64,000 nucleotides of DNA. Origin: a virus. Lineage: Duplodnaviria; Heunggongvirae; Uroviricota; Caudoviricetes. A program made the position numbers and the translations under genes. Within the stretch, counting starts at the first letter, position 1, and each line of letters opens with the position of its first letter. Of the stretch, positions 1-57,746 are shown one piece after another. The stretch covers positions 1-64,000 of the IMG/VR virus record IMGVR_UViG_3300000553_000006. The stretch is one strand, 5' to 3'. The notes under the pieces are model-generated. The model saw only the letters and a list, made by a program, of their open reading frames with translations, was not told where the DNA came from and did not search any database.

Positions 1-45
1 AGGGAGATGCTTTCTCCCCGAGAGCCTTCGCCCATAGTCTCCACA

Positions 46-363
46 TTATTCCTTCGGCTCAACATCACAAGGTAGATGATCGTAGGCAGAATAAGATTGA
101 ACTTCTGGATAGAGACGAACAACGTTGTCCGGAAGTTCTCTAACAGTGGTTACTGTCATATTGTTACGTTCAAGGACATTGATCGTCTCAAACAAAACGT
201 CGACTAGATCTTCAAGCATTCTAACATGTTCTAGAATCTCTGAGAGATCTTCGTCTCCTGAGTAATTATCAGGAACATCTCGACCCATAGATTCTGCATG
301 CAGAAAGCCATTTACTGTCGCCTGAGCAACTCGTTCACGTAGTCGTCTAATTACTTCATCCAT
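46..363 (-). CDS. hypothetical protein
   Basis: 105-aa ORF on the dominant coding strand, acidic, no recognisable motif. Confidence 0.45.
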   Translation of the reverse strand: MDEVIRRLRERVAQATVNGFLHAESMGRDVPDNYSGDEDLSEILEHVRMLEDLVDVLFETINVLERNNMTVTTVRELPDNVVRLYPEVQSYSAYDHLPCDVEPKE

Positions 364-3566: not shown

Positions 3567-3794
3567 TTATTTCGTTTCAACCAAGAAATTACCGAAACCA
3601 TCAAGGAGTTGATCCTTGGTGATCTTTTCGTTATTCGCGTTTTCGTTAAGATACGCGATCATCTTCTCAAGCATATCTTCCTTGGCTTCAAGGTATTCGA
3701 TATAGTTTTGAGCTTCATCAACTACCTTGCCCACAGCGTAGGCTTGAGTTTGGCGAAGATTGTTAAAGTCTTCAAGCAGTCCATCGTATCGCAT
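3567..3794 (-). CDS. hypothetical protein
   Basis: 75-aa ORF; TTGACATTAAAT promoter at 3845..3857 upstream. Confidence 0.45.
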   Translation of the reverse strand: MRYDGLLEDFNNLRQTQAYAVGKVVDEAQNYIEYLEAKEDMLEKMIAYLNENANNEKITKDQLLDGFGNFLVETK

Positions 3795-3834
3795 TTGCGA
3801 TTCCTTTCATGTATCAGATATTCATATTATAAAT

Positions 3835-6331: not shown

Positions 6332-6955
6332 CTAACTTCTCCCAAATCTCCAACCTTCAGGCAAAGATTCGGATTTATTAATCTTTTTACTACGAATTCC
6401 ATCTGTTATCCAAACTTTACCTAAATTTGGTGAACATTTTAGATTTTGAAATGGGTGAGTTCCAGTTTGGAATTGTAGTCTAGAAGAAATAGAAACTGAT
6501 CTACAAAAGTTTTCTCTGAATTTATGGTCCGTTTCTAATTTATATTTTCTTTTTGTGTTACCTAGAATAGAAGCAGCTTTGAAATCAACATTTTGTTTTT
6601 GTATCGGAACAGATAATCCATTAGTATTGATATAACCAAATCCACCTTTACCGCCAGGACAGATATTATACGTATCTTCTCGTAAACAAAACTCTTCTGT
6701 CACTAACTCTTTTTCTTTATTGTTCATTTCTTCTTCAGAGTCAAACACAAAAAGAATTTCTTTAGAGAACTTATCTAATCCATATTTCTTCTGGGATCGT
6801 TTAAGATTTTGACCAGAACCCATGTATCCATCAGTCAAAGACTTTGTTTGATGTTTACCAATATAGATCTTATTATTAATAGAACAAGTAATTTTATAGA
6901 CAGTATAAAACAAAGTACTACCCCTGGAATTATTGAAAGGTCTTAGTATGCCCAT
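6332..6955 (-). CDS. GIY-YIG homing endonuclease (seg-like), paralog of 46212..46826
   Basis: FYTVYKITCSINNKIYIGKHQT...DGYMGSG GIY-YIG core, and the C-terminal two thirds are near-identical to paralog 46212..46826 (KELVTEEF, NICPGGKGGFGYIN), giving a family-typical size of 207 aa with a putative DNA-binding tail. Confidence 0.8.
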   Translation of the reverse strand: MGILRPFNNSRGSTLFYTVYKITCSINNKIYIGKHQTKSLTDGYMGSGQNLKRSQKKYGLDKFSKEILFVFDSEEEMNNKEKELVTEEFCLREDTYNICPGGKGGFGYINTNGLSVPIQKQNVDFKAASILGNTKRKYKLETDHKFRENFCRSVSISSRLQFQTGTHPFQNLKCSPNLGKVWITDGIRSKKINKSESLPEGWRFGRS

Positions 6956-6965
6956 TTATAATTCC
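6926..6965 (-). promoter_or_regulatory. leader hairpin enclosing the start codon of the GIY-YIG gene
   Basis: Arms GGAATTAT/ATAATTCC flank a conserved loop AAATGGGCATACTAAGACCTTTC; a minus-sense TATAAATG late-like box overlaps. Confidence 0.55.
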
Positions 6966-7059
6966 AGAGGCTTGTGTCAGAGCAACTGGTAACGCTCCAG
7001 TATAGCCAGCTTCCAAAGCCAACTGAGATCCTTGTCTTTCCTACTCTGATAACTCAAAA

Positions 7060-7146
7060 TGGAGGGTCCTGTGGGATTCGAACCCACGGTGTGCTTGCGC
7101 ATGCAGATTAAGAGTCTGCTCGTTTCGACCGCTTACCTAAAAACCC
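7060..7146 (-). tRNA. type II (long variable arm) tRNA, anticodon reads CUU as folded
   Basis: 87 nt. Acceptor GGGUUUU/AGGACCC with two G.U pairs. Ser-like D-loop AAGCGGTCGAA. Anticodon arm GCAGA-CTCTTAA-TCTGC. 15-nt variable arm. T-arm GTGGG-TTCGAAT-CCCAC. Encoded CCA. The anticodon assignment is not standard for a type II tRNA. Confidence 0.55.
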
Positions 7147-20366: not shown

Positions 20367-21002
20367 ATGAGTATTTATTACGTTTACGCATACCTTCGCA
20401 AATCGAACGGTATCCCTTACTATATCGGAAAAGGTAAAGGAGACAGAGCGTTTAGAAAACATACTTTCGTATCAGTTCCAAAAGACAAATCTAAAATAGT
20501 GTTCTTAGAAACTAATCTTACGGAGATTGGCGCTCTAGCATTAGAGAGACGATACATCCGTTGGTATGGTCGTAAAAACTTGAATACAGGAGTCCTTCTA
20601 AACAAAACAGATGGAGGAGAAGGAACAGCAGGAAGAATTCCTACACCACAATCTCCTGAATCAAATATAGCAAGAGGATCTGGATTCAGAGGTAAGAAAA
20701 GACCAGAACATGCTGCTAAAATGAAAGAGTATTATCGTTCAGGTAAACTGAATCAACTAGCAGTAGCTAGAAAACATACTGAAAAAACTAAAGATAAGCT
20801 ACGTAAACCTAAATCTAACAAACTAAACTATCAGAACAGGAAATGGTATCACAGTTTGCTCCTAAAGAAAGAAGCTTGCGTGAGTACCATTCCTGACTGG
20901 ACAGATGTTAAACTAGGTAGATACCCTAATTCCGGAGACAGGTTACGCGAGCCATCTTTTCCCAACGTTCAGGCGAAGTCTTACGAAGAGCAGCCAGCTT
21001 AA
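20367..21002 (+). CDS. GIY-YIG homing endonuclease
   Basis: [29 protein letters not shown]; paralog of 30000..30596 and 49150..49701; conserved leader. Confidence 0.8.
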
Positions 21003-28815: not shown

Positions 28816-29448
28816 ATGTCAAGCCCAAATGCATATGTGTATAAAATAACGAATACGGTAACTAATGAATTTTATATCGGATACAGATACAAAAACCAAA
28901 GACAAAACGTTCTTCCAGAAAATGATTTGTTTGTTACATATTTCTCTTCATCAAAACGAGTTCTATCTGACATAGAGAAATATGGGAAGTCAAATTTTAT
29001 TTATGAGATAATTTTCCAAGACCAAAATTCTCTATTGTGTTGGGAAAAAGAACAGGAAACAATCAAAGAACTCTGGGGAAATTCTCTTTTACTTAACTCG
29101 AAATATAATGATGTCTCTAGTAAAACAGAACATTACCGAAGAGTTGGTATTGTATCAGAAGAAGCAAGAAAGAAAATGAGTGTTGCAGGAAGAGGGAAAA
29201 CAAAGTCTCTCGAGCATAGAAGAAAAATTGCCGAATCTAATAGAGGTAGAGTAAAATCTCTAGAAGAGAGACAAAAGATATCTAACTCAAGAATTGGGAA
29301 ACCAACAAATAAAGGTAAGTCTCCTCCAAAATTTTCCTGTCCTCACTGCAACAAAGTAGCATCTTGGGCAAATTTACAAAAGTGGCATAATGACAAATGT
29401 AAATTTTATGTCGTTACCTCTTCAATTTCCGAGAAACCTTCCTCGTAA
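28816..29448 (+). CDS. GIY-YIG homing endonuclease with NUMOD3 repeats
   Basis: YVYKITNTVTNEFYIGYRYKN; SLEHRRKIAESNRGRVKSLEERQKIS repeats. Confidence 0.75.
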   Translation: MSSPNAYVYKITNTVTNEFYIGYRYKNQRQNVLPENDLFVTYFSSSKRVLSDIEKYGKSNFIYEIIFQDQNSLLCWEKEQETIKELWGNSLLLNSKYNDVSSKTEHYRRVGIVSEEARKKMSVAGRGKTKSLEHRRKIAESNRGRVKSLEERQKISNSRIGKPTNKGKSPPKFSCPHCNKVASWANLQKWHNDKCKFYVVTSSISEKPSS

Positions 29449-29999: not shown

Positions 30000-30596
30000 A
30001 TGACTATTTATTACGTCTATGCATATTTGAGAAACTCAGACAACTCACCATATTACATCGGTAAAGGTACAGGAAATCGTGCATATAAAAGACACGGAAG
30101 AATCAGTGTACCTAATGATAAAACAAAAATTAAAATTCTAGAAACTAATCTAACAGAGATTGGCGCTCTAGCATTAGAGAGACGATACATCCGTTGGTAT
30201 GGTCGTAAAGATTTAGAAACAGGAATATTACTTAATTTGACAGACGGAGGTGAAGGATTACAAGGACTCAAAAGAACTCCAACTCACAAAGCAAATATCT
30301 CGAAGTCTTTGACAGGTAAACCTAAAAAGAAACACACTCAAGAATGGAAGGGTCATATGTCTTCAGTAATGAAGGGAAAAATTCCTTGGAATAAAGGGAT
30401 ACCGCTGTCAAAAGAACACTTAGAGTTAAGAACAAAAGCAGTCAAAGGTATGAGATGGTGGACGAACGGTGAAACAGAAAAGAAATCCTTTGTTCAACCC
30501 GACTCTTCATTCCACATTGGAAGATTAGAAAAGTTTCGCCCACCATCTCAATTAAAGCGTATTCCTTCAAACCAGGTAGAAGCCAGAACTTCATAG
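30000..30596 (+). CDS. GIY-YIG homing endonuclease
   Basis: [29 protein letters not shown]; paralog of 20367 and 49150. Confidence 0.8.
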
Positions 30597-32899: not shown

Positions 32900-33583
32900 T
32901 TACCTCTTGTTATAATATTCGCGAATAACATCCATTGCGCCATCTATATAATCATCTCGTTTCTTTATAAAAACTTGACCTGGCGCGGGTGAGTCTGAAG
33001 CCATTACGATTACTATCTGTGGACAACATATTCCAGTCCGTTCTTCCATCATGACGGAGTATATAGCTGTCTGATAAAAGTAGGATAGAATCCAATCAGC
33101 TCTCTTAGGTTTGTTTGCTGACTTGAAATCTAGAATAGAGTTTCTTCCAGACCAACGAACAACAGCGTCAACACGACCTCCAACCTTAAGATAATCAGAG
33201 GTCAGAGGTGTCTCTACACCATAAACAATCTCGATGTTCTCGTCTAGAATGTGTTTAATCTTACCGAAAAGATCCAGCGTTGTTGGCATTACACCACGAC
33301 GATACTCTTTATTCAGTAGATAGTTCTCGCAAACAGTGTGAAGAGCTGTACCTCTGTCGGCTGCTGCTTTGCTGATTCTCTTGGCTTCTTCCTCACCAAC
33401 TCTAGCTTTCCATTCATCAAGTCCAGTCTTATCCATCACACCCATAACTGTAGTAACAGATGGATACCTCGCCCCGTCCGGCGAGGTATAAAATCTTCCA
33501 TATGATAAAGTTTCAACCAATGGATCAGGCAAATCTACTAATTGATGTTCAAACATGTATTCTTCCAATATTCCAAGAACCAT
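32900..33583 (-). CDS. PD-(D/E)XK nuclease-family protein
   Basis: GRVDAVVRWSGRNSILDFKSANK (D-x13-D-F-K). Confidence 0.45.
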   Translation of the reverse strand: MVLGILEEYMFEHQLVDLPDPLVETLSYGRFYTSPDGARYPSVTTVMGVMDKTGLDEWKARVGEEEAKRISKAAADRGTALHTVCENYLLNKEYRRGVMPTTLDLFGKIKHILDENIEIVYGVETPLTSDYLKVGGRVDAVVRWSGRNSILDFKSANKPKRADWILSYFYQTAIYSVMMEERTGICCPQIVIVMASDSPAPGQVFIKKRDDYIDGAMDVIREYYNKR

Positions 33584-34238
33584 CAGCAGATTCTGTAAAT
33601 CTTAGATAGTTTCTTTTTCCATCATTATACCATTTTCTTCCAGTGAGATAAGAATAATCGATATTCTTTCTAGCATCAGAAAGTTTTTTGCAAGTTTCTA
33701 GAGAAGGTTTCTTACCTTTATGAGATAAACTATTTTTCTTTCTTTGATCCTCAGTTAGTTTTCTTCCTGTGTTTGCAACACTTATTTTTCTTTTATGTTC
33801 ATCAGAAAAAATTTTACCTTTATTTGCAGCATTACCTATGCTTGCTTTTGCTATTTTGTCTTTTGTTTCTTGAGATTGTTTAAATCCTGGAATTCTATAG
33901 AAATCTTTGGCTCCATTTGATTTATTGAGCCAAAGATTTGATTTAGCTGCATTAAGTTTTCTTAATACAGCGTTTTCCCAAAATAAACATTTTTCCTTTG
34001 ATGTAAATGTCTTTCTGATTTCTATCACATCAGGCTCACCATATTGGTGTCTAAATGCAGCAACAACCTTTGAAGAAGTGAAATACGTTACCCAAAGATC
34101 GCTTGGGTTCGCTGTTTTGTTAAATTGGGCGCCATAATACCACTTATTGTGATTGCGCCAACCTATAAGGTATGTGTATGGGACATAAATAGTCATAGCT
34201 GGTTCTCCTCGTAGAACTAGAGCCTGGGGGAAGTGCAA
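33549..34238 (-). CDS. GIY-YIG homing endonuclease (seg-like) with NUMOD3 repeats
   Basis: YVPYTYLIGWRNHNKWYYGAQ; SQETKDKIAKASIGN repeats. Confidence 0.65.
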   Translation of the reverse strand: MHFPQALVLRGEPAMTIYVPYTYLIGWRNHNKWYYGAQFNKTANPSDLWVTYFTSSKVVAAFRHQYGEPDVIEIRKTFTSKEKCLFWENAVLRKLNAAKSNLWLNKSNGAKDFYRIPGFKQSQETKDKIAKASIGNAANKGKIFSDEHKRKISVANTGRKLTEDQRKKNSLSHKGKKPSLETCKKLSDARKNIDYSYLTGRKWYNDGKRNYLRFTESADGSWNIGRIHV

Positions 34239-44142: not shown

Positions 44143-44216
44143 TGGCATGGGTACTAAGAGTCGAACTCAGGCTTACAGTTTTGGAGACTGTCGTGCTACC
44201 GTAACACTTTACCCAC
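44143..44216 (-). tRNA. tRNA-Trp (CCA)
   Basis: Anticodon arm ACAGT-CTCCAAA-ACTGT, T-loop GAGTTCGACTC, encoded CCA. Confidence 0.7.
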
Positions 44217-44526
44217 ACATGTATTTCTTATTTTTACCAGCGTATGTCTCAGTTTGAGAATGGCAGTTAGGACAAAGAAAGGTTAAATTATCTAATCTAT
44301 TGTCGTTATTTACACCATTCTTGTGTTCTAACTGAAGAGAAATAGATTTCCCATTCCACTCATCAGAAAGTCCGCAATCTGAACAAACATAATCTATCAG
44401 TTTTTGCTTAATTACTCTTTCTTTTAACCTATGTCTAGGATAATTTGAATTTTCAACAAAAACAGTATCATTAGAAAATTTTCTACTAGCTGCAGATAAT
44501 AGCAACCCTTGTATATTTCTTGGCAT
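44209..44526 (-). CDS. HNH endonuclease
   Basis: CSDCGLSDEW...HKNGVNNDNRLDNLTFLCPNCH; minus-sense TATAAATA late box at about 44550. Confidence 0.7.
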   Translation of the reverse strand: MPRNIQGLLLSAASRKFSNDTVFVENSNYPRHRLKERVIKQKLIDYVCSDCGLSDEWNGKSISLQLEHKNGVNNDNRLDNLTFLCPNCHSQTETYAGKNKKYMCG

Positions 44527-44583: not shown

Positions 44584-44658
44584 TGGTGGAGGATAAGGGA
44601 ATCGAACCCTTGCTTCATGCTTGCAAAGCACGAGTGCTACCATTATCACCAATCCCCC
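44584..44658 (-). tRNA. tRNA-Ala (UGC)
   Basis: Anticodon arm CGTGC-TTTGCAA-GCATG; G3.U70 identity pair present; CCA. Confidence 0.7.
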
Positions 44659-44664
44659 ATTATA

Positions 44665-44740
44665 TGGTGCCGCAACGAGGAATCGAACCCCGGACATCCT
44701 GCTTACAAGGCAGGCGCTCTTCCAACTGAGCTATTACGGC
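44665..44740 (-). tRNA. tRNA-Thr (UGU)
   Basis: Anticodon arm CCTGC-CTTGTAA-GCAGG; D-arm GCTCAGTTGGAAGAGC; CCA. Confidence 0.75.
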
Positions 44741-44787
44741 ATAATTACTCTTTATTTATAAATATCTAAGCAGCTAAGGAGAAGAAT

Positions 44788-45147
44788 ATGATTGAACATA
44801 TCGAAAAAATCAACACAAAGATCGCACTTACGGTAACAGATGTCGTAGGTACAATGTGGTGCGCGTATATTTTCGCAGTTCTAGCAGTACTCAGTCTTCC
44901 TACAGCTATTGCTGGTGGTATCGCAACTCTAATTTCTTGGGTCGCTCAAACTTTCCTTCAACTCGTACTTCTATCAGTCATCATGGTTGGACAACGTATT
45001 CAAAGCGAGAGAACTGAGAAGCGAGACGAAGAAGATCACGTAACCATCATGAACGAATTCGCAGAAATTAAACAAATGCATAACGAAATAAAAGAAATCT
45101 TGGCTCTTGAAAAGCAAGATGCTGCTCAAGAGAAGCGTGGAGTCTAG
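44788..45147 (+). CDS. membrane protein
   Basis: 119 aa, two TM helices; TATAAATA late box at 44757..44764 and an AAGGAGA RBS. Confidence 0.55.
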   Translation: MIEHIEKINTKIALTVTDVVGTMWCAYIFAVLAVLSLPTAIAGGIATLISWVAQTFLQLVLLSVIMVGQRIQSERTEKRDEEDHVTIMNEFAEIKQMHNEIKEILALEKQDAAQEKRGV

Positions 45148-45154
45148 AGAGTAT

Positions 45155-45230
45155 TGGAGTGCACGACAGGATTCGAACCTGCATTAAACTGAGTTGCAAT
45201 CAGTTGACTAACCATTCATACCACGTGCAC
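45155..45230 (-). tRNA. tRNA-Cys (GCA)
   Basis: Anticodon arm ACTGA-TTGCAAC-TCAGT; acceptor GTGCACG/CGTGCAC; CCA. Confidence 0.7.
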
Positions 45231-45810
45231 GTAATTTTCTATATCTTAATCCTTTACTCCATCCCGTCATATTTAGGAATTCTTCTTCAGTTACCATTTT
45301 AGATTTCTGCAAATCATCATTAGAAACCCAAAATTTACCTTTACTGTGATGATGTTCTAACAGTTTTTTAGAAAGTGCTGGACCATTTTTCCTATTAATT
45401 TCAGTCATCTTTTCACAAAACTTGTCACGATATGACTGATCAATTTTGATTCTATTCCCGTGAATTAAATGTTGATCAACTTTATGATTTAATCCAAATT
45501 TATTCACATAATAGAAATTTGCAGGTCCACCCAATTTTACATTATACACATCATTTCTATCTAAAAATTCTTCCGTTACTAATTCTATTTCTCTATCATA
45601 CATATTTTCTTCAGTATCAAACCACTCTATAATTTCTTTAGAAAAATTCTCAATTCCATACTTTTTTATAGCAGATTTAATACCTTTTCCAGATCCCATA
45701 TATCCATCATCTATATTAGAAGTTTTATGGACCCCAACATATATTTTGCCGTTCAGTCTATTTCTAATTTGATATAGATAGTAATACATAAGAATCTCCA
45801 TTCTCTTCAT
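45208..45810 (-). CDS. GIY-YIG homing endonuclease
   Basis: YYYLYQIRNRLNGKIYVGVHKT...DGYMGSG; its stop overlaps the 5' end of tRNA-Cys; late box at about 45822. Confidence 0.75.
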   Translation of the reverse strand: MKRMEILMYYYLYQIRNRLNGKIYVGVHKTSNIDDGYMGSGKGIKSAIKKYGIENFSKEIIEWFDTEENMYDREIELVTEEFLDRNDVYNVKLGGPANFYYVNKFGLNHKVDQHLIHGNRIKIDQSYRDKFCEKMTEINRKNGPALSKKLLEHHHSKGKFWVSNDDLQKSKMVTEEEFLNMTGWSKGLRYRKLRARGMNG

Positions 45811-45848
45811 TACTATTTATATAAACGCAGACCGTTACCTAGAAGATA

Positions 45849-45923
45849 TGGCACCCACATCCAGAATCGAACTGGAATCGACCGTTTAGAAGACGGTAGC
45901 TCTGTCCGTTGAGCTATGCGGGC
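45849..45923 (-). tRNA. tRNA-Arg (UCU)
   Basis: Anticodon arm ACCGT-CTTCTAA-ACGGT; CCA. Confidence 0.7.
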
Positions 45924-45929
45924 TCAAAA

Positions 45930-46004
45930 TGGTACTGGAGCCCAGAATTGAACTGGAGACTCAGGGGACACAATCCTGCATTTTACCAATTAAACTACTC
46001 CAGC
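45930..46004 (-). tRNA. tRNA-His (GUG), probable
   Basis: Anticodon loop TTGTGTC in a CAGGA/CCCTG stem with one mismatch; CCA. Confidence 0.55.
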
Positions 46005-46202
46005 TCACTCTTGATCAATAACCAGATAGCAAAATCTATGAACAATATCGAAAGACTCGATTACCTTAATCGCGCGCTCATCGTTTGCTTTTGCTTTCAC
46101 ATGTAGATCAAGAATATAATCTCGTAGACGAAAAAAATTGTAAGCATCTTGGAGAAGATCACCAAGATCCAGAACTTGTTCAACAGTCACATTCTGTTTC
46201 AT
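46005..46202 (-). CDS. hypothetical protein
   Basis: 65-aa ORF. Confidence 0.35.
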   Translation of the reverse strand: MKQNVTVEQVLDLGDLLQDAYNFFRLRDYILDLHVKAKANDERAIKVIESFDIVHRFCYLVIDQE

Positions 46203-46211
46203 AATATATCC

Positions 46212-46826
46212 TTAAAGAGTCTTTCGACCTTTATTATAACCTAGTGCCAAATAATAATCAAGCTGTTCTTTTTTAATTTTAAGAATACGTTGTCCATTAT
46301 TTATCCAACAAGTACCAAATTGAGAATTTTTAGATCCTTTTTGGTGTTCTTTTTCGTGCAAAGTATTTTTTCTTTTTAATTTGGCATCTTCAGTATTGGC
46401 AAATAATGAAGCAATCTTTATATTATTCTTTCTAGCTCTTAGTTTATTTTCACTTTCAATTTTAAGATTTAATTTATTCAATTTTCCTGAAATTTTTCCA
46501 CCCAATCTATATGCTTCAATAGGAACCAATCCATTTGCATTGATATACCCAAATCCACCTTTACCACCAGGACATAGATTATAGGTATCCTCTCGTGTAC
46601 AAAACTCTTCGGTAACCAATTCTTTCTCTTTAGCATTCATTTCTTCTTCCGAATCAAATACAAAGAGAATTTCTTTAGTAAACTTATCTAATCCATATTT
46701 CTTTTGGGCTCTACGTAATGATTGACCAGAACCCATATATCCATCATCCAAATCTTTTGTTTGATGTTTACCAATATAGATTTTGTTGTTTACAGAACAA
46801 GTAATTTTGTAGATAGTATAAAACAT
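46212..46826 (-). CDS. GIY-YIG homing endonuclease, paralog of 6332..6955
   Basis: MFYTIYKITCSVNNKIYIGKHQTKDLDDGYMGSG. Confidence 0.8.
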   Translation of the reverse strand: MFYTIYKITCSVNNKIYIGKHQTKDLDDGYMGSGQSLRRAQKKYGLDKFTKEILFVFDSEEEMNAKEKELVTEEFCTREDTYNLCPGGKGGFGYINANGLVPIEAYRLGGKISGKLNKLNLKIESENKLRARKNNIKIASLFANTEDAKLKRKNTLHEKEHQKGSKNSQFGTCWINNGQRILKIKKEQLDYYLALGYNKGRKTL

Positions 46827-46833
46827 ATTAGTG

Positions 46834-46883
46834 TCCCAGGAAATATAGAAAGGTCTTAGTATGCCTATTTATATTTCCTGGGA
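46834..46883 (-). promoter_or_regulatory. leader hairpin (14-bp perfect stem) upstream of the GIY-YIG gene
   Basis: Arms TCCCAGGAAATATA/TATATTTCCTGGGA around the same conserved loop as at 6926..6965; contains a minus-sense TATAAATA. Confidence 0.55.
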
Positions 46884-46889
46884 CTGAAG

Positions 46890-46979
46890 TAGTCCTGCTA
46901 GGACTCGAACCTAGATCGTTCACCCGTCCGGTGATCATGCCTTATAAGGACACCGCTCTGCCAATTGAGCTACAAGACT
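46890..46979 (-). tRNA. type II tRNA with 22-nt variable arm, anticodon reads UAU as folded; no encoded CCA
   Basis: Acceptor AGTCTTG/CAGGACT, D-arm GCTC-AATTGGCA-GAGC, anticodon arm GTGTC-CTTATAA-GGCAT (2 G.U), T-arm CTAGG-TTCGAGT-CCTAG. Confidence 0.5.
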
Positions 46980-49149: not shown

Positions 49150-49701
49150 ATGTTTATTTATTACGTCTATGCTTACCTTCGTAAATCTGATGGATCTCCA
49201 TATTACATCGGAAAAGGTAAAGGAAAGAGAGCGTTTGACAAAAGTCATTCTGTCTCTGTACCTAAAGACAAATCAAAAATAATTTTCCTCGAAACACATC
49301 TATCTAATCTGGGTGCATGCGCATTAGAACGTAGATATATTCGCTGGTATGGACGTAAAGATTTAGGAACAGGTATCCTTCTTAATAAGACAGAAGGAGG
49401 GGATGGAAATTCTGGAAAAAGATCTAAATTGTGGAGAGAAAACCACAGTAAAATAATGTCCGGAGAAAACAACCCTTCTAAGAGACCTGAAGTAAAAGAA
49501 AAACAAAGAATGACTGATAAATCTTATATGCAGAAAGATGACTACAAGAACAAAATCTCCCAAGCAAATAAGAAAGCAATCATTACTCCAAACGGTAAAT
49601 TCAAATCAGTTGGAGAAGCTATCTCTAGTTACAATACGACTCCACACTACTTTTACAAGATGATGAAATCTAGCCCGAAGGAGTTTTATACTGTGCTTTA
49701 A
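49150..49701 (+). CDS. GIY-YIG homing endonuclease
   Basis: [29 protein letters not shown]; conserved leader at 49083..49149. Confidence 0.8.
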
Positions 49702-52889: not shown

Positions 52890-55175
52890 CTAGATAGTAC
52901 AGCTGTCACAATTTTCTTGATCTAATTCTCCTAGTTTTACAGCAAAAGAAGATTCAGTAATTTCTCCAGCGCCATCTGAAGTATTGAAGTAATATAAGGT
53001 CTTACCACCAAGTTTATAGTGTAGAAGAATATGTCCTAGCATTTCTGAGACTGGGATCTTCTCTTCAGGATAGAAGATAGGATTGTAAGAGGTATTTACA
53101 GAAATGGCTTGGTCCATATACTTTTGAATCACAGCCATAATCTTGAGATATCCCTCAGGACTGCGTTGATCCCATAGCAATTCGTATTTATTCTTCATAC
53201 GACGGAAGTCAGGGACAACTTGCTTGAGAACTCCATCCTTTGATACTTTAACAGAAACAAATGCTCTTGGTGGTTCAACACCATTTGTAGCATTAATGAT
53301 CTGTGATGAAGTCTCAGATGGCATACAAGCCATTAGTGTGGCGTTACGAATACCATGAAGCTTGGCATCAGCCTTGAGGCTTTCCCAGTCCATATGATAA
53401 ACTGGAGTAACAATAGTGTCAAGCTCTTTCTTATACGTATCAATCGGGAAAATGCCGTGAGCATACTTTACAGCTTCACCGCCCTTACATGGACCAAACT
53501 CTTTCGCAAGTTGTACAGAAGCTTTGATCAAATAGTAAGACCAAGCTTCACACATCTCATCAATCTTAGCCAGATTTGGATTGGTGTATGTCATATCATT
53601 CTTTGCCATCCAGTAAGCAAGATTATTCAATCCTACACCAAGAGGACGGTACTTCTCGGTAGAGTTACGTGCAGCCAAAACAGGATAGTTTTGGTAGCTA
53701 AGAAGAGCGTCAAGCCCGCGTACTGCAAGCTCACAAGGCTTCTCAAAATCCTTAGATGATCTGATCTTACCTAGATTAATCGCTGTTAGAGTACAAAGAG
53801 CGATCTCTCCATTAGGATCATTAACATCATTAAGAGGAACAGTTGGTAGTGTAATCTCTGTACATAGATTGCTCATTCTGATTGGAGCAAGATCTGTAAT
53901 GAATGAACCGTGATCGTTACAGTGATCAACATTCATAAGATATACTCGTCCAGTGTCCTTCCGTTCTTGTATGAACGACGTGAAAAGGTCAATGGCTTTA
54001 ACTGTCCGCTTTCTAATCTTAGTTGAACGCTCGTACTTCTCGTATAGAGTGCGGAAAGTGTCTGTGTTTGAGAAGAACGCTTCGTAGAGGTCAGGTACAT
54101 CAGATGGAGAAAACAGAGTGATGTTCCCGCCAGTAATAAGTCTTTCATACATGACTTTATTGAATTGGACGCCGTAGTCAAGATGTCTTGCACGATTATC
54201 CTCCGTACCTTTGTTGTTCTTCAGAACAAGCATGTCCTCGATTTCTAAGTGCCAGACCGGATAATAGAGCGTTGCAGCACCGCCTCGAACACCCCCTTGG
54301 GAGCACGATTTGACAGCACTTTGAAAATGTTTATAAAAAGGAATAACTCCAGTATGAGAAGCATCACCATTGCGAATAGGGGAGCCAAGAGCACGTATGC
54401 GCCCAGCTCCAATACCAATACCAGCCTTTTGAGAAACATACTTAACGATCGCCGATGCCGTCGCGTTAATACTGTCAAGGGAATCCTCCGTTTCAATTAA
54501 TACGCATGATGAGAATTGACGTTGAGGAGTTCTAACGCCAGCCATCACAGGTGTGGGTAATGAGAAATCAAAGGTAGAGATCGCGTCGTAGTATTCCTTG
54601 ACGTACTTAAGGCGAGTTTCCTTTGGATAGTTTGAGAACAACGCAGCTGAGATAAGAATGAACGCCATTTGTGGCGTTTCAAAGATCTCTCCAGTTGTTC
54701 TATTCTTTACAAGATACTTACCACGGAACTGCTCCATTGCAGCATAAGTGAGAAGATAATCTCGGTCGTGATTAATGTAACCATTAATTGAGTTCCATTC
54801 TTGTTCGTTGTATGCAGCAAGTAGATCCTTATCATAGAAACCGAACTTGACAACATTCTTTACATGGTCAAGAAGGTGTATAGGCTCGTATTGCCCATAC
54901 ACTTCCTTGCGAAGATGGTAGTTAATCAGGCGACCACCAACGTATTGGTAGTTCGGAGTCTCTTCCGAGATAAGATCAGCTGCAGCCTTGATCAAAGTCT
55001 CTTGAATATCAGAGGTCTTGATCTTATCGTAAAACTGAATTTGAGACTTCAGTTCAATTTCTGAAGCTGATACATTATTGATTCCTTGACAAGCAAGAAT
55101 ACACACACCGTGGAACTTGTTTAGATCGAGAGGTTCCTTGTCTCCGTTACGTTTTGTTACTACAATTCCTGACAT
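52890..55175 (-). CDS. nrdA: ribonucleotide reductase class Ia alpha subunit
   Basis: 761 aa, N-terminal ATP-cone, C-terminal CDSC redox pair. Confidence 0.85.
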   Translation of the reverse strand: MSGIVVTKRNGDKEPLDLNKFHGVCILACQGINNVSASEIELKSQIQFYDKIKTSDIQETLIKAAADLISEETPNYQYVGGRLINYHLRKEVYGQYEPIHLLDHVKNVVKFGFYDKDLLAAYNEQEWNSINGYINHDRDYLLTYAAMEQFRGKYLVKNRTTGEIFETPQMAFILISAALFSNYPKETRLKYVKEYYDAISTFDFSLPTPVMAGVRTPQRQFSSCVLIETEDSLDSINATASAIVKYVSQKAGIGIGAGRIRALGSPIRNGDASHTGVIPFYKHFQSAVKSCSQGGVRGGAATLYYPVWHLEIEDMLVLKNNKGTEDNRARHLDYGVQFNKVMYERLITGGNITLFSPSDVPDLYEAFFSNTDTFRTLYEKYERSTKIRKRTVKAIDLFTSFIQERKDTGRVYLMNVDHCNDHGSFITDLAPIRMSNLCTEITLPTVPLNDVNDPNGEIALCTLTAINLGKIRSSKDFEKPCELAVRGLDALLSYQNYPVLAARNSTEKYRPLGVGLNNLAYWMAKNDMTYTNPNLAKIDEMCEAWSYYLIKASVQLAKEFGPCKGGEAVKYAHGIFPIDTYKKELDTIVTPVYHMDWESLKADAKLHGIRNATLMACMPSETSSQIINATNGVEPPRAFVSVKVSKDGVLKQVVPDFRRMKNKYELLWDQRSPEGYLKIMAVIQKYMDQAISVNTSYNPIFYPEEKIPVSEMLGHILLHYKLGGKTLYYFNTSDGAGEITESSFAVKLGELDQENCDSCTI

Positions 55176-55747
55176 ACTTTTCCTACTCTACAATTGTCAA
55201 AATGCCATCTTTTCATACCACTACCATATCCAGATTTACCACATTTATTACATGTATGTTTTTGTTGAGAATGGTGTGTGCCAGAATCTAGTTGTTTCTT
55301 TTGCGCTTTTCTTTGTGTATCACCACCAATAAAGTGATGAGTTCCGTTTTCTATTCTTTTCTGTGTAGTCTTTCTAGAAATTTCGCCACCAATAAAGTGG
55401 TGTGTTCCAGCATCAACTCTTTTCTTAGCAGATATTTTAGCGACTTCACCACCAAGAAAATTATGTGTACCTTCTTCAACTCGTTTTCTAGAATTTTTTC
55501 TAGCTATCTGAGATATTATTTCTCCAGACATATTCATTCTAATTAATACTGCTTGTGCAGCTGCCCAGTCTTCTTGGTCATAATGAATTTTATAGTGGTC
55601 ATCAATAGATAATGCAATCAAGTTGCTAATATCGTTATTTTGATTGTTCCCATCCTTGTGATGAATATCAAATGTTCTACCGTATTCATCACAAGGAATA
55701 GGTCCATATACACTTTCGTATAATCTTCTGTAATCAGTCATAAGCAA
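55160..55747 (-). CDS. HNH homing endonuclease
   Basis: TFDIHHKDGNNQNNDISNLIALSIDDHYKIH; late box at about 55768. Confidence 0.7.
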   Translation of the reverse strand: MLMTDYRRLYESVYGPIPCDEYGRTFDIHHKDGNNQNNDISNLIALSIDDHYKIHYDQEDWAAAQAVLIRMNMSGEIISQIARKNSRKRVEEGTHNFLGGEVAKISAKKRVDAGTHHFIGGEISRKTTQKRIENGTHHFIGGDTQRKAQKKQLDSGTHHSQQKHTCNKCGKSGYGSGMKRWHFDNCRVGKVCQEL

Positions 55748-55802
55748 CTCCTATTAGATCATCTATTTATAAATTGCTTACGCTTGATTACATTAATCAT
55801 CT

Positions 55803-57170: not shown

Positions 57171-57746
57171 TTATTCCTTTCTATATACCATACCAGCTAC
57201 CCAGTCTGAGCCGGGTGATACTTTAGATCGTTTTCTTTTACCTTCTGGATTTACCCACCAAATAGTATTTTGTACAGCTTTACTTCCATGACTATTGGAA
57301 GTAGTATCTAAAAATCCAGCACACCTTTCTTTAGCAACTAATCCAGCACGTTGAGCATTTTTTCTTGCTAATATAGGATCTGCATTTATAGCGTGTATCC
57401 CAACTTTATTCTTTACAGTTTTATATGCTGCTTGAGTTGATATTTCAGATCTTCTTTCTTTAGACATTTTTTGGAAATTGTGATTTCCAGAATCATAAAT
57501 TTTCTTTTGAGATAAAGAAGCAGCGTTTTTAATTTCTTCTTTACTTGCTCCATTTATTCTAAGTAATATAGCTTGGACTGCACCCCAATCATTCTGCTTT
57601 TTGTGTATTTCTAAATGCTCTTGAATAGTTACTAACTGAAGATTAGTTGGATCGTCATTAAAATGATTACCGTCTATATGGTGAATTTCATAACCCTCTG
57701 GAATTTTTAGATTATTATATTCTTCCCAAATTTTTCTATAGTGCAT
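57171..57746 (-). CDS. HNH homing endonuclease
   Basis: EIHHIDGNHFNDDPTNLQLVTIQEHLEIH; late box at 57782..57789. Confidence 0.7.
   Translation of the reverse strand: MHYRKIWEEYNNLKIPEGYEIHHIDGNHFNDDPTNLQLVTIQEHLEIHKKQNDWGAVQAILLRINGASKEEIKNAASLSQKKIYDSGNHNFQKMSKERRSEISTQAAYKTVKNKVGIHAINADPILARKNAQRAGLVAKERCAGFLDTTSNSHGSKAVQNTIWWVNPEGKRKRSKVSPGSDWVAGMVYRKE

Follow-up and report, generated by a model that had tools for sequence, protein, structure and literature searches.

The minus strand of the 64,000-nt stretch of phage DNA analysed here (the window; IMG/VR record IMGVR_UViG_3300000553_000006, positions 1-64,000, which cover part of the genome) carries two paralogous GIY-YIG homing endonuclease genes, named copy 1 and copy 2 together with their leaders, and all features relevant to them lie on this strand. 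Each gene is preceded by a hairpin whose counterparts are conserved in homologous genes of other phages. These hairpins are probably the leaders of SegB-type free-standing GIY-YIG genes located 3' of transfer RNA (tRNA) genes, in which a late promoter is embedded in a hairpin that sequesters the ribosome-binding site. The original prediction for this stretch, namely homing endonucleases residing in tRNA islands and equipped with a structured translational gate over a late-promoter box, fits the evidence described below, with several of its details revised.

The two endonuclease genes and their leader hairpins

Copy 1 (6332..6913, minus strand, from its probable TTG start at 6913; the mechanical open reading frame (ORF) reaches ATG 6955) and copy 2 (46212..46826, minus strand) both encode SegB-like homing endonucleases. 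The Pfam families PF01541 (GIY-YIG) and PF19835 (SegE_GIY-YIG) score above their cut-offs in the N-terminal catalytic domain of both proteins, copy 1 matches the phrog_314 homing endonuclease with an E value of 3e-41, and the two proteins are 56% identical (E 2e-73), in agreement with their initial description as GIY-YIG paralogues. Copy 2 is a homologue of T4 SegB: its residues 1-202 align with SegB residues 1-218, over the full length, with 40% identity (BLASTP, E 1e-44). In cultured T4-like phages, homologues carry the annotation of Seg-like or SegB homing endonuclease, that of Vibrio phage Va1 being SegB.

The window contains the 18-mer GGCATACTAAGACCTTTC at 6935-6952 and at 46848-46865 of the minus strand and nowhere else (0.03 occurrences expected by chance), and each occurrence is part of a hairpin. 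The copy 1 hairpin (6920..6971, minus strand) is composed of a 5' arm at 6958-6971, an apical region at 6934-6957 and a 3' arm at 6920-6933, with a stem of 14 bp, GCCUCUGGAAUUAU/AUAAUUCCAGGGGU, and a predicted folding energy of -22.5 kcal/mol (z -2.35; RNAfold). The copy 2 hairpin (46833..46884, minus strand) has its 5' arm at 46870-46884, its apical region at 46848-46869 and its 3' arm at 46833-46847, with a stem of 15 bp and -27.4 kcal/mol (z -5.0; RNAfold). The shared core and the hairpin announced for both genes were thus recovered, the "conserved core" being the 3' half of the promoter box, a short inner helix, the apical loop and the complement of the promoter. A search of the window and four related loci with Rfam gave only tRNAs at the gathering score, and nothing credible at the hairpin with E values up to 10.

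The arms had been said to differ completely between the copies, and only 8 of the 14 pairs of copy 1 had been noticed. They align ungapped and in register: nine pairs are identical, three are doubly compensatory (C-G/U-A, U-A/A-U and U-A/A-U), two are changed on one side (G.U/G-C and U.G/C-G) and one position is paired in copy 2 only. Taken alone, this comparison of two copies is suggestive and not decisive. The 3' arms contain Shine-Dalgarno (SD)-like runs, GGGG in copy 1 (6921..6924, minus strand) and GGGA in copy 2 (46834..46837, minus strand), each paired at all four bases and located 7 nt upstream of TTG 6913 and ATG 46826, respectively. The start codon of copy 1 had been placed within the hairpin; in both window copies the real start codon is outside the stem, separated from the 3' arm by 6 nt, and it is the SD-like G-run that the stem covers.

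Conservation and covariation among relatives

With the copy 2 protein as query, viral contigs yielded 80 loci with 49 distinct upstream regions. Folding z-scores were calculated over 51 distinct leaders, and pairing, covariation and SD or start codon counts over 38 leaders from environmental phage contigs. Most loci share a common order, in which the 3' end of a tRNA is followed by a short CATAGAG or CATAAGC box, a long hairpin and then ATG or TTG. The 5' strand of the hairpin carries TATAAATAG, the apical loop ends in UAA(G/A)AC, and the 3' strand ends in a G-rich SD-like element 5-10 nt ahead of the ATG or TTG, one subgroup having instead the start codon itself within the 3' strand (GAACAUGAAAUG/CAUUUCAUGUUC).

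The folding-energy z-score is below -3 in 41 of the 51 distinct leaders, with a median of -4.8. RNAalifold gave no structure on a plain MAFFT alignment (A1), where the 3' arms are out of register; the covariation counts and a covariance model were obtained from an alignment of sequences each trimmed to its own hairpin (A2). On A2, 86.7% of the cells are paired, versus 31-45% when the partner is slid by 1-3 columns, both-sided changes are seen at 14 of 16 pairs, and the covariation score is 0.726 versus 0.227 in shuffles, none of 500 shuffles scoring as high. In a register test that allows one registration parameter per sequence, the nine positions just 5' of the promoter pair in 36-38 of the 38 leaders, each of them with four to six pair types. 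The SD-like tetramer is paired at three or four of its bases in 27/38 leaders, the start codon is paired in 27/38, and one or the other is sequestered in 37/38. Homologous genes in relatives therefore do carry the inverted arms on which the original prediction depended, with strong covariation, and the hairpin is a stable, covarying structure conserved among homologues.

Within the window, only the two copies are significant with the covariance model. In the related loci, it gave six non-seed matches, five of which are located between a tRNA, directly upstream, and a SegB-like ORF. The sixth, a match of 31 bits at L154 5132-5185, right after tRNA-Asn, with hairpin and ATGTTT intact, is followed by a tRNA gene and no endonuclease ORF; this orphan leader looks like the footprint of a lost endonuclease gene.

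The late-promoter box and a putative early/late switch

Both hairpins had been described as overlapping a late-promoter box. This is exact for copy 2, where the T4-type late-promoter consensus TATAAATA (46866..46873, minus strand) has its TATA in the 5' arm and its AATA in the loop, whereas copy 1 has only the variant TATAAATG (6953..6960, minus strand), which matches at 7 of 8 positions, at the junction of 5' arm and loop. The box is more conserved than any other part of the element: in the family alignment, T15, A16 and T19 never vary and at least 90% of the sequences keep A17, A18 and A20, while the neighbouring stem columns vary freely. The 3' strand opposite the promoter is less conserved, with 11 U.G and 11 unpaired cells counted at the two innermost promoter pairs, and so the constraint acts on the sequence of the 5' strand and not on pairing alone. 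The window contains 13 TATAAATA sites versus 2.7 expected, each followed at a distance of 4-68 nt by a same-strand gene start, which in nine cases is that of an endonuclease gene.

Late promoters usually have their box at about -13 to -6, so that late transcripts would begin in the apical loop, without the 5' arm. TATAAATA is the T4 late-promoter consensus, and the mapped 5' ends of the late transcripts of T4 gene e lie just downstream of the box (PMC3014915).

We hypothesize that read-through from the tRNA cluster, which presumably takes place, would give early and middle transcripts carrying both arms, and that the stem, by pairing the SD-like G-run and in many relatives also the start codon, would block translation, so that the endonuclease would not be made early. 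From the putative gp55-type promoter TATAAATA, on the 5' strand at its junction with the apical loop, late transcripts would start around 6 nt downstream of the box, inside the loop, and would contain the 3' strand only; the ribosome site would then be free and the endonuclease would be made late. Sigma-70-like promoters are present upstream of the tRNA clusters, no more commonly than in shuffles.

Several points weigh against this switch. Translational control and the late transcript start are read from the sequence only, and the use of TATAAATA as a late promoter from its enrichment and position. No gp55 was found among the ORFs scanned, which are a part of the ORFs of a 64-kb window that is itself part of the genome. 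For T4 segB itself, Brok-Volchanskaya et al. (2008) saw no mapped promoter nearby (PMC2330249), and its late promoter is marked as predicted only (PMC2988022, Fig. 1 asterisk). In the window copies, the start codon is left outside the stem and the SD-like GGGG and GGGA are weak; furthermore, copy 1 carries TATAAATG and an A.A mismatch, on account of which its switch may be impaired. Finally, the switch leaves the invariant UAA(G/A)AC of the apical loop unexplained.

Comparison with known leaders

The hairpin had been put forward as a new type of leader. It is of the T4 segB type, whose hairpin was predicted by Brok-Volchanskaya et al. in 2008 (PMC2330249) and whose leader was grouped with those of I-TevI and mobE by Edgell, Gibb and Belfort in 2010 (PMC2988022, Fig. 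5). A late promoter inside a hairpin that hides the ribosome-binding site is established experimentally for T4 gene e and I-TevI (PMC2988022, PMC3014915), and the same arrangement was described for I-TevII, I-TevIII, T4 segB and Aeh1 mobE (PMC2988022; PMC3014915; PMC2330249).

The T4 segB leader, a comparison with which had been recommended, indeed folds alike: its hairpin (T4 genome 71912-71952), GAACAUAAAUACUCUUAG / AUAGGAGAUAUUUAUGUUC, has the promoter-like CATAAATA on the 5' strand, and its 3' strand contains the SD and AUG. Besides the homologous endonuclease, 40% identical to copy 2 over its full length, the two systems have in common a gene immediately 3' of a tRNA in a cluster (T4 segB lies between tRNA-Ile and tRNA-Arg) and a (C/T)ATAAATA box on the 5' strand with the translation start region on the 3' strand, and the GAACAU/AUGUUC outer helix of T4 (GAGAACAU...AUGUUC) is shared with an environmental subgroup. 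In the window copies, however, the middle helix is longer and covaries freely, the start codon is 6 nt outside the stem, the SD is weaker, and the apical loop is CAUACUAAGA (UAA..C being invariant in the family), which is absent from T4, where the hairpin is itself a predicted structure.

I-TevI, a GIY-YIG endonuclease of the T4 td intron, follows the same logic, since its early and middle read-through transcripts hide the ribosome-binding site and its late transcripts start inside the hairpin and are translated (Gott et al. 1988 and Gibb and Edgell 2010, cited in PMC2988022 and PMC3014915), but it is intron-encoded, belongs to another GIY-YIG subfamily and has a demonstrated autorepression through an operator resembling its homing site. 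No operator of this kind is evident in the window leaders. The translation initiation region hairpins of T4 e, soc and 49 and of Aeh1 mobE (PMC3014915, PMC2988022) likewise sequester the SD and/or AUG on long early transcripts, with relief on transcripts from a TATAAATA late promoter; as neither their genes nor their sequences are related to those of the window, the resemblance is one of mechanism and not of homology.

The apical-loop motif and alternative explanations

The UAA(G/A)AC motif of the apical loop is as conserved as the promoter, from which it is separated by 4-12 nt, and is fixed beside the inner helix. It is invariant among leaders that otherwise covary freely, and the hairpin may do more than mask the ribosome-binding site: the motif could be a protein-binding site on RNA or on DNA, for the endonuclease or for a phage translational repressor, or a processing signal coupling tRNA 3' maturation to the fate of the mRNA, a suggestion that we make tentatively and to which we give a rather small chance. 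The motif has no resemblance to the SegB target motif, and a search for a long-range partner in the upstream tRNA and the endonuclease ORF gave no consistent complement. The operator loop of T4 gp43 was reported to contain -UAAC- (PMC3014915), which is a tentative lead. If the suggestion is true, the leaders would form a distinct and widespread cis-regulatory RNA family of tRNA-targeting endonucleases, absent from Rfam.

The hairpin could instead be chiefly an RNA-processing site, at which a double-strand-specific enzyme such as RNase III cuts between tRNA and mRNA, or RNase E does so by attacking the AU-rich loop, the cleavage serving tRNA 3' maturation and inactivating or activating the endonuclease message. 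In most loci, 0-7 nt separate the hairpin from the tRNA 3' end, its outer and inner helices add up to a stem of 20-25 bp, the T4 segB mRNA was reported to be cut by RNase E within the tRNA precursor (PMC2988022, PMC2330249), and the invariant loop motif could be a recognition element. We nevertheless think this unlikely as the chief role, as it leaves unexplained both the near-invariance of TATAAATA on the 5' strand only and the 3' strand always ending in an SD or start codon. Processing is, in any case, compatible with an early/late switch and does not exclude it.

The original prediction took the in-frame ATG in the loop of copy 1 (6955-6953, the last three bases of TATAAATG) as its true start, enclosed by the hairpin, and proposed that copy 2 had lost it and starts downstream. 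This ATG is in frame with the ORF and exposed in the loop. However, the homology of copy 1 with copy 2, and with T4 SegB, begins at the TTG codon 6913 (L15 of the mechanical ORF), which is aligned with the ATG of copy 2, and the start at this aligned position is ATG in 31 and TTG in 6 of the 38 leaders, including the closest relative, L099, which has the TTG start and no loop ATG. Moreover, ATG 6955 overlaps the promoter box and would be missing from late transcripts, and it has no SD upstream. A start at the loop ATG is therefore quite improbable, and copy 1 most likely starts at TTG 6913. As the family consensus at the base concerned is A, kept in at least 90% of the members, the G in the promoter box of copy 1 is the derived state, an A-to-G change by which the ATG arose incidentally and the promoter match was weakened.

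A palindrome acting at the DNA level, whether as a recombination site or as an operator to which the endonuclease binds, in the manner of I-TevI, is very improbable, even though I-TevI represses its own late promoter through an overlapping operator (PMC2988022) and the homology between the window and the related locus L074 breaks exactly at the 5' edge of the hairpin. Over the 38 leaders, G.U cells outnumber A.C cells 41 to 10, that is, they are tolerated four times more often, which favours a sense-strand RNA over a DNA palindrome. The covariance model scores are also far lower on the opposite strand, with 43.2 bits on the minus versus 17.0 bits on the plus strand for copy 1, and 54.6 versus 31.7 bits for copy 2. 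GIY-YIG endonucleases have, to our knowledge, no need for palindromic sites. The loop is unlike the SegB recognition motif GGTTCRANTCC (PMC2330249).

A stable stem-loop immediately 3' of a tRNA could also be an intrinsic terminator, or stabilise the 3' end of the tRNA transcript, without any part in the expression of the endonuclease, but this is hardly credible here, with no U-tract after the stem, nothing at either site in a terminator scan, and a hairpin that accompanies the endonuclease gene, and not tRNAs in general, behind at least 14 tRNA isoacceptor types, a SegB-like ORF following in all but one case.

Neighbouring tRNA genes

The hairpins had been located directly 3' of atypical type II tRNAs. 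The tRNA upstream of copy 1 has the anticodon CUU (7060..7146, minus strand; 87 nt; ARAGORN; 49.3 bits with the Rfam tRNA model), with a long variable arm, a 3-bp D stem, U73 and an encoded CCA, and is a single instance with no close relative among viral contigs; that upstream of copy 2 has the anticodon UAU (46889..46979, minus strand; 91 nt; ARAGORN; 56.4 bits with the Rfam tRNA model) and also a long variable arm. Direct adjacency holds for copy 2, with a 4-nt gap between tRNA and hairpin and a gene start 62 nt after the tRNA, which is typical of the family, but not for copy 1, where hairpin and tRNA are separated by an 88-nt spacer (6972-7059) and the gene starts 146 nt after the tRNA; no decayed tRNA was found in this spacer. 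As to the type, both tRNAs have long variable arms with a stem and pass the Rfam tRNA model, whereas their anticodons are not those of Leu, Ser, Tyr or Sec tRNAs.

A special link with type II tRNAs has to be abandoned. In about 36 of 47 homologous loci surveyed, the distance from the end of a tRNA to the start of the endonuclease gene is 52-70 nt, and the upstream tRNAs represent at least 14 isoacceptor types (Gly, Gln, Leu, Met, Lys, Asn, Glu, Pro, Ile, Thr, Trp, Arg, Asp and Ser), mostly with the ordinary length of 72-78 nt. Adjacency to a tRNA is thus general, with no association with type II tRNAs. T4 SegB recognises a 27-bp site with the tRNA T-loop motif GGTTCRANTCC (PMC2330249), and the presence of this motif in its target accounts for the location of SegB-like genes behind tRNA genes. 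Alleles lacking the endonuclease, searched for in viral contigs with the exact 3' halves of both flanking tRNAs, gave no match.

We noticed that the UAU tRNA of about 91 nt recurs in six of the related loci (L110 1415-1505, L115 986-1077, L128 1920-2011, L134 2589-2679, L144 739-830 and L154 2850-2939). In the window and these six loci, the anticodon loop CUUAUAA is invariant, and A73 and the long variable arm are present. The variable-arm stem covaries in the seven homologues (GCGC/GCGC, UCACC/GGUGA, UCUC/GAGA and CAGU/ACUG). It is unusual for a type II-like body to carry an Ile (AUA) anticodon, and no phage tRNA-Ile having a long variable arm was found in a literature search.

Exchange between relatives and other endonuclease loci

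NrdA of the window is at most 60% identical, and its DNA ligase around 43% identical, to those of known phages. The top matches of the marker proteins include Stenotrophomonas phage DLP_6 and Caulobacter phage Cr30, which we take to be T4-like phages, and from these proteins the window appears to belong to a divergent T4-like phage. A megablast search of the region against phage records gave no match.

Locus L074 is 99.3% identical to window positions 44591-46882 (2292 bp), up to the 5' edge of the hairpin, where the homology stops, and its upstream tRNA is a different one, Gly(UCC). All 15 mismatches fall in 46782-46874 (L074 2447-2539), which corresponds to the leader and the first 15 codons, and at these L074 mostly matches copy 1. 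This pattern suggests gene conversion between paralogous endonuclease genes, and some of the compensatory differences between copy 1 and copy 2 may therefore have been inherited together and not have arisen as independent paired mutations; the covariation at the level of the family is independent of this issue. Scanning viral contigs with a 14-mer of the core gave 98 matches, all by chance except L074, and scanning metagenomes with the 18-mer gave only two contigs, both with the leader of L074.

The left end of the window (1-79) is 100% identical to the ends of two contigs (L074 4693-4733 and L183 1-79), in which this end is joined to a SegB-like gene through approximately 2.1 kb with tRNA-Leu, tRNA-Tyr and tRNA-Gly. 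Either the gene order differs among relatives or the sequence just to the left of the window holds a further tRNA/endonuclease island. The endonuclease gene of L183 matches the window copies over its first 350 nt only, a pattern that suggests an exchange of the C-terminal domain. L120, a tRNA-rich contig, has a manA RNA (RF01745, 55.3 bits, barely over the threshold) at 3644-3815, a few hundred bases 3' of a SegB-like gene.

At least 11 homing endonuclease-like genes are present in the 64 kb, a very high density. These comprise three SegB-like genes (6332-6913, 45208-45810 and 46212-46826), a SegE-like gene (28816-29448, plus strand), a NUMOD3 gene (33549-34238), HNH genes (44209-44526, 55160-55747 and 57171-57746) and three paralogous ORFs (20367-21002, 30000-30596 and 49150-49701, plus strand) with 46% identity and weak matches to homing-endonuclease PHROGs. 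The three paralogous ORFs are antisense to the surrounding genes and each has TATAAATA around 60 nt upstream, two of the three sharing a common leader, GAATGCTAGTCGCG...CAGCACATG; this is probably the first leader type, the SegB-type hairpin having been listed originally as the second. The third SegB-like gene (45208-45810, minus strand), 38 nt after tRNA-Arg, has TATAAATA at 45814-45821 in a leader of different geometry, in which the promoter box pairs with codons 2-6, and its score with the covariance model is weak (16.5 bits, E 0.25). The HNH/intron-like ORF at 55160-55747 (minus strand) is immediately upstream of nrdA (52890-55175) and overlaps the nrdA start, a position that recalls T4 mobE. 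In its leader (55748-55790, minus strand), AAGCAAUU, upstream of TATAAATA, pairs with GGAGUUGCUU at the SD before the AUG, which is the same design as in the SegB-type hairpins.

Implications

No new mechanism is revealed by these leaders, and their value lies in the comparative proof of the structure and in the unexplained loop motif. For the annotation of the window, the start of copy 1 should be set to TTG 6913. Together, the hairpin and TATAAATA can be used as a marker of SegB-type cassettes and of their insertion borders in the tRNA islands of T4-like phages. The hairpin of T4 segB had been a prediction from a single sequence, and it now has comparative support from 38 leaders of a wide range of environmental T4-like phages, which is, as far as we could find, the first strong support that the segB-type leader design is under selection.

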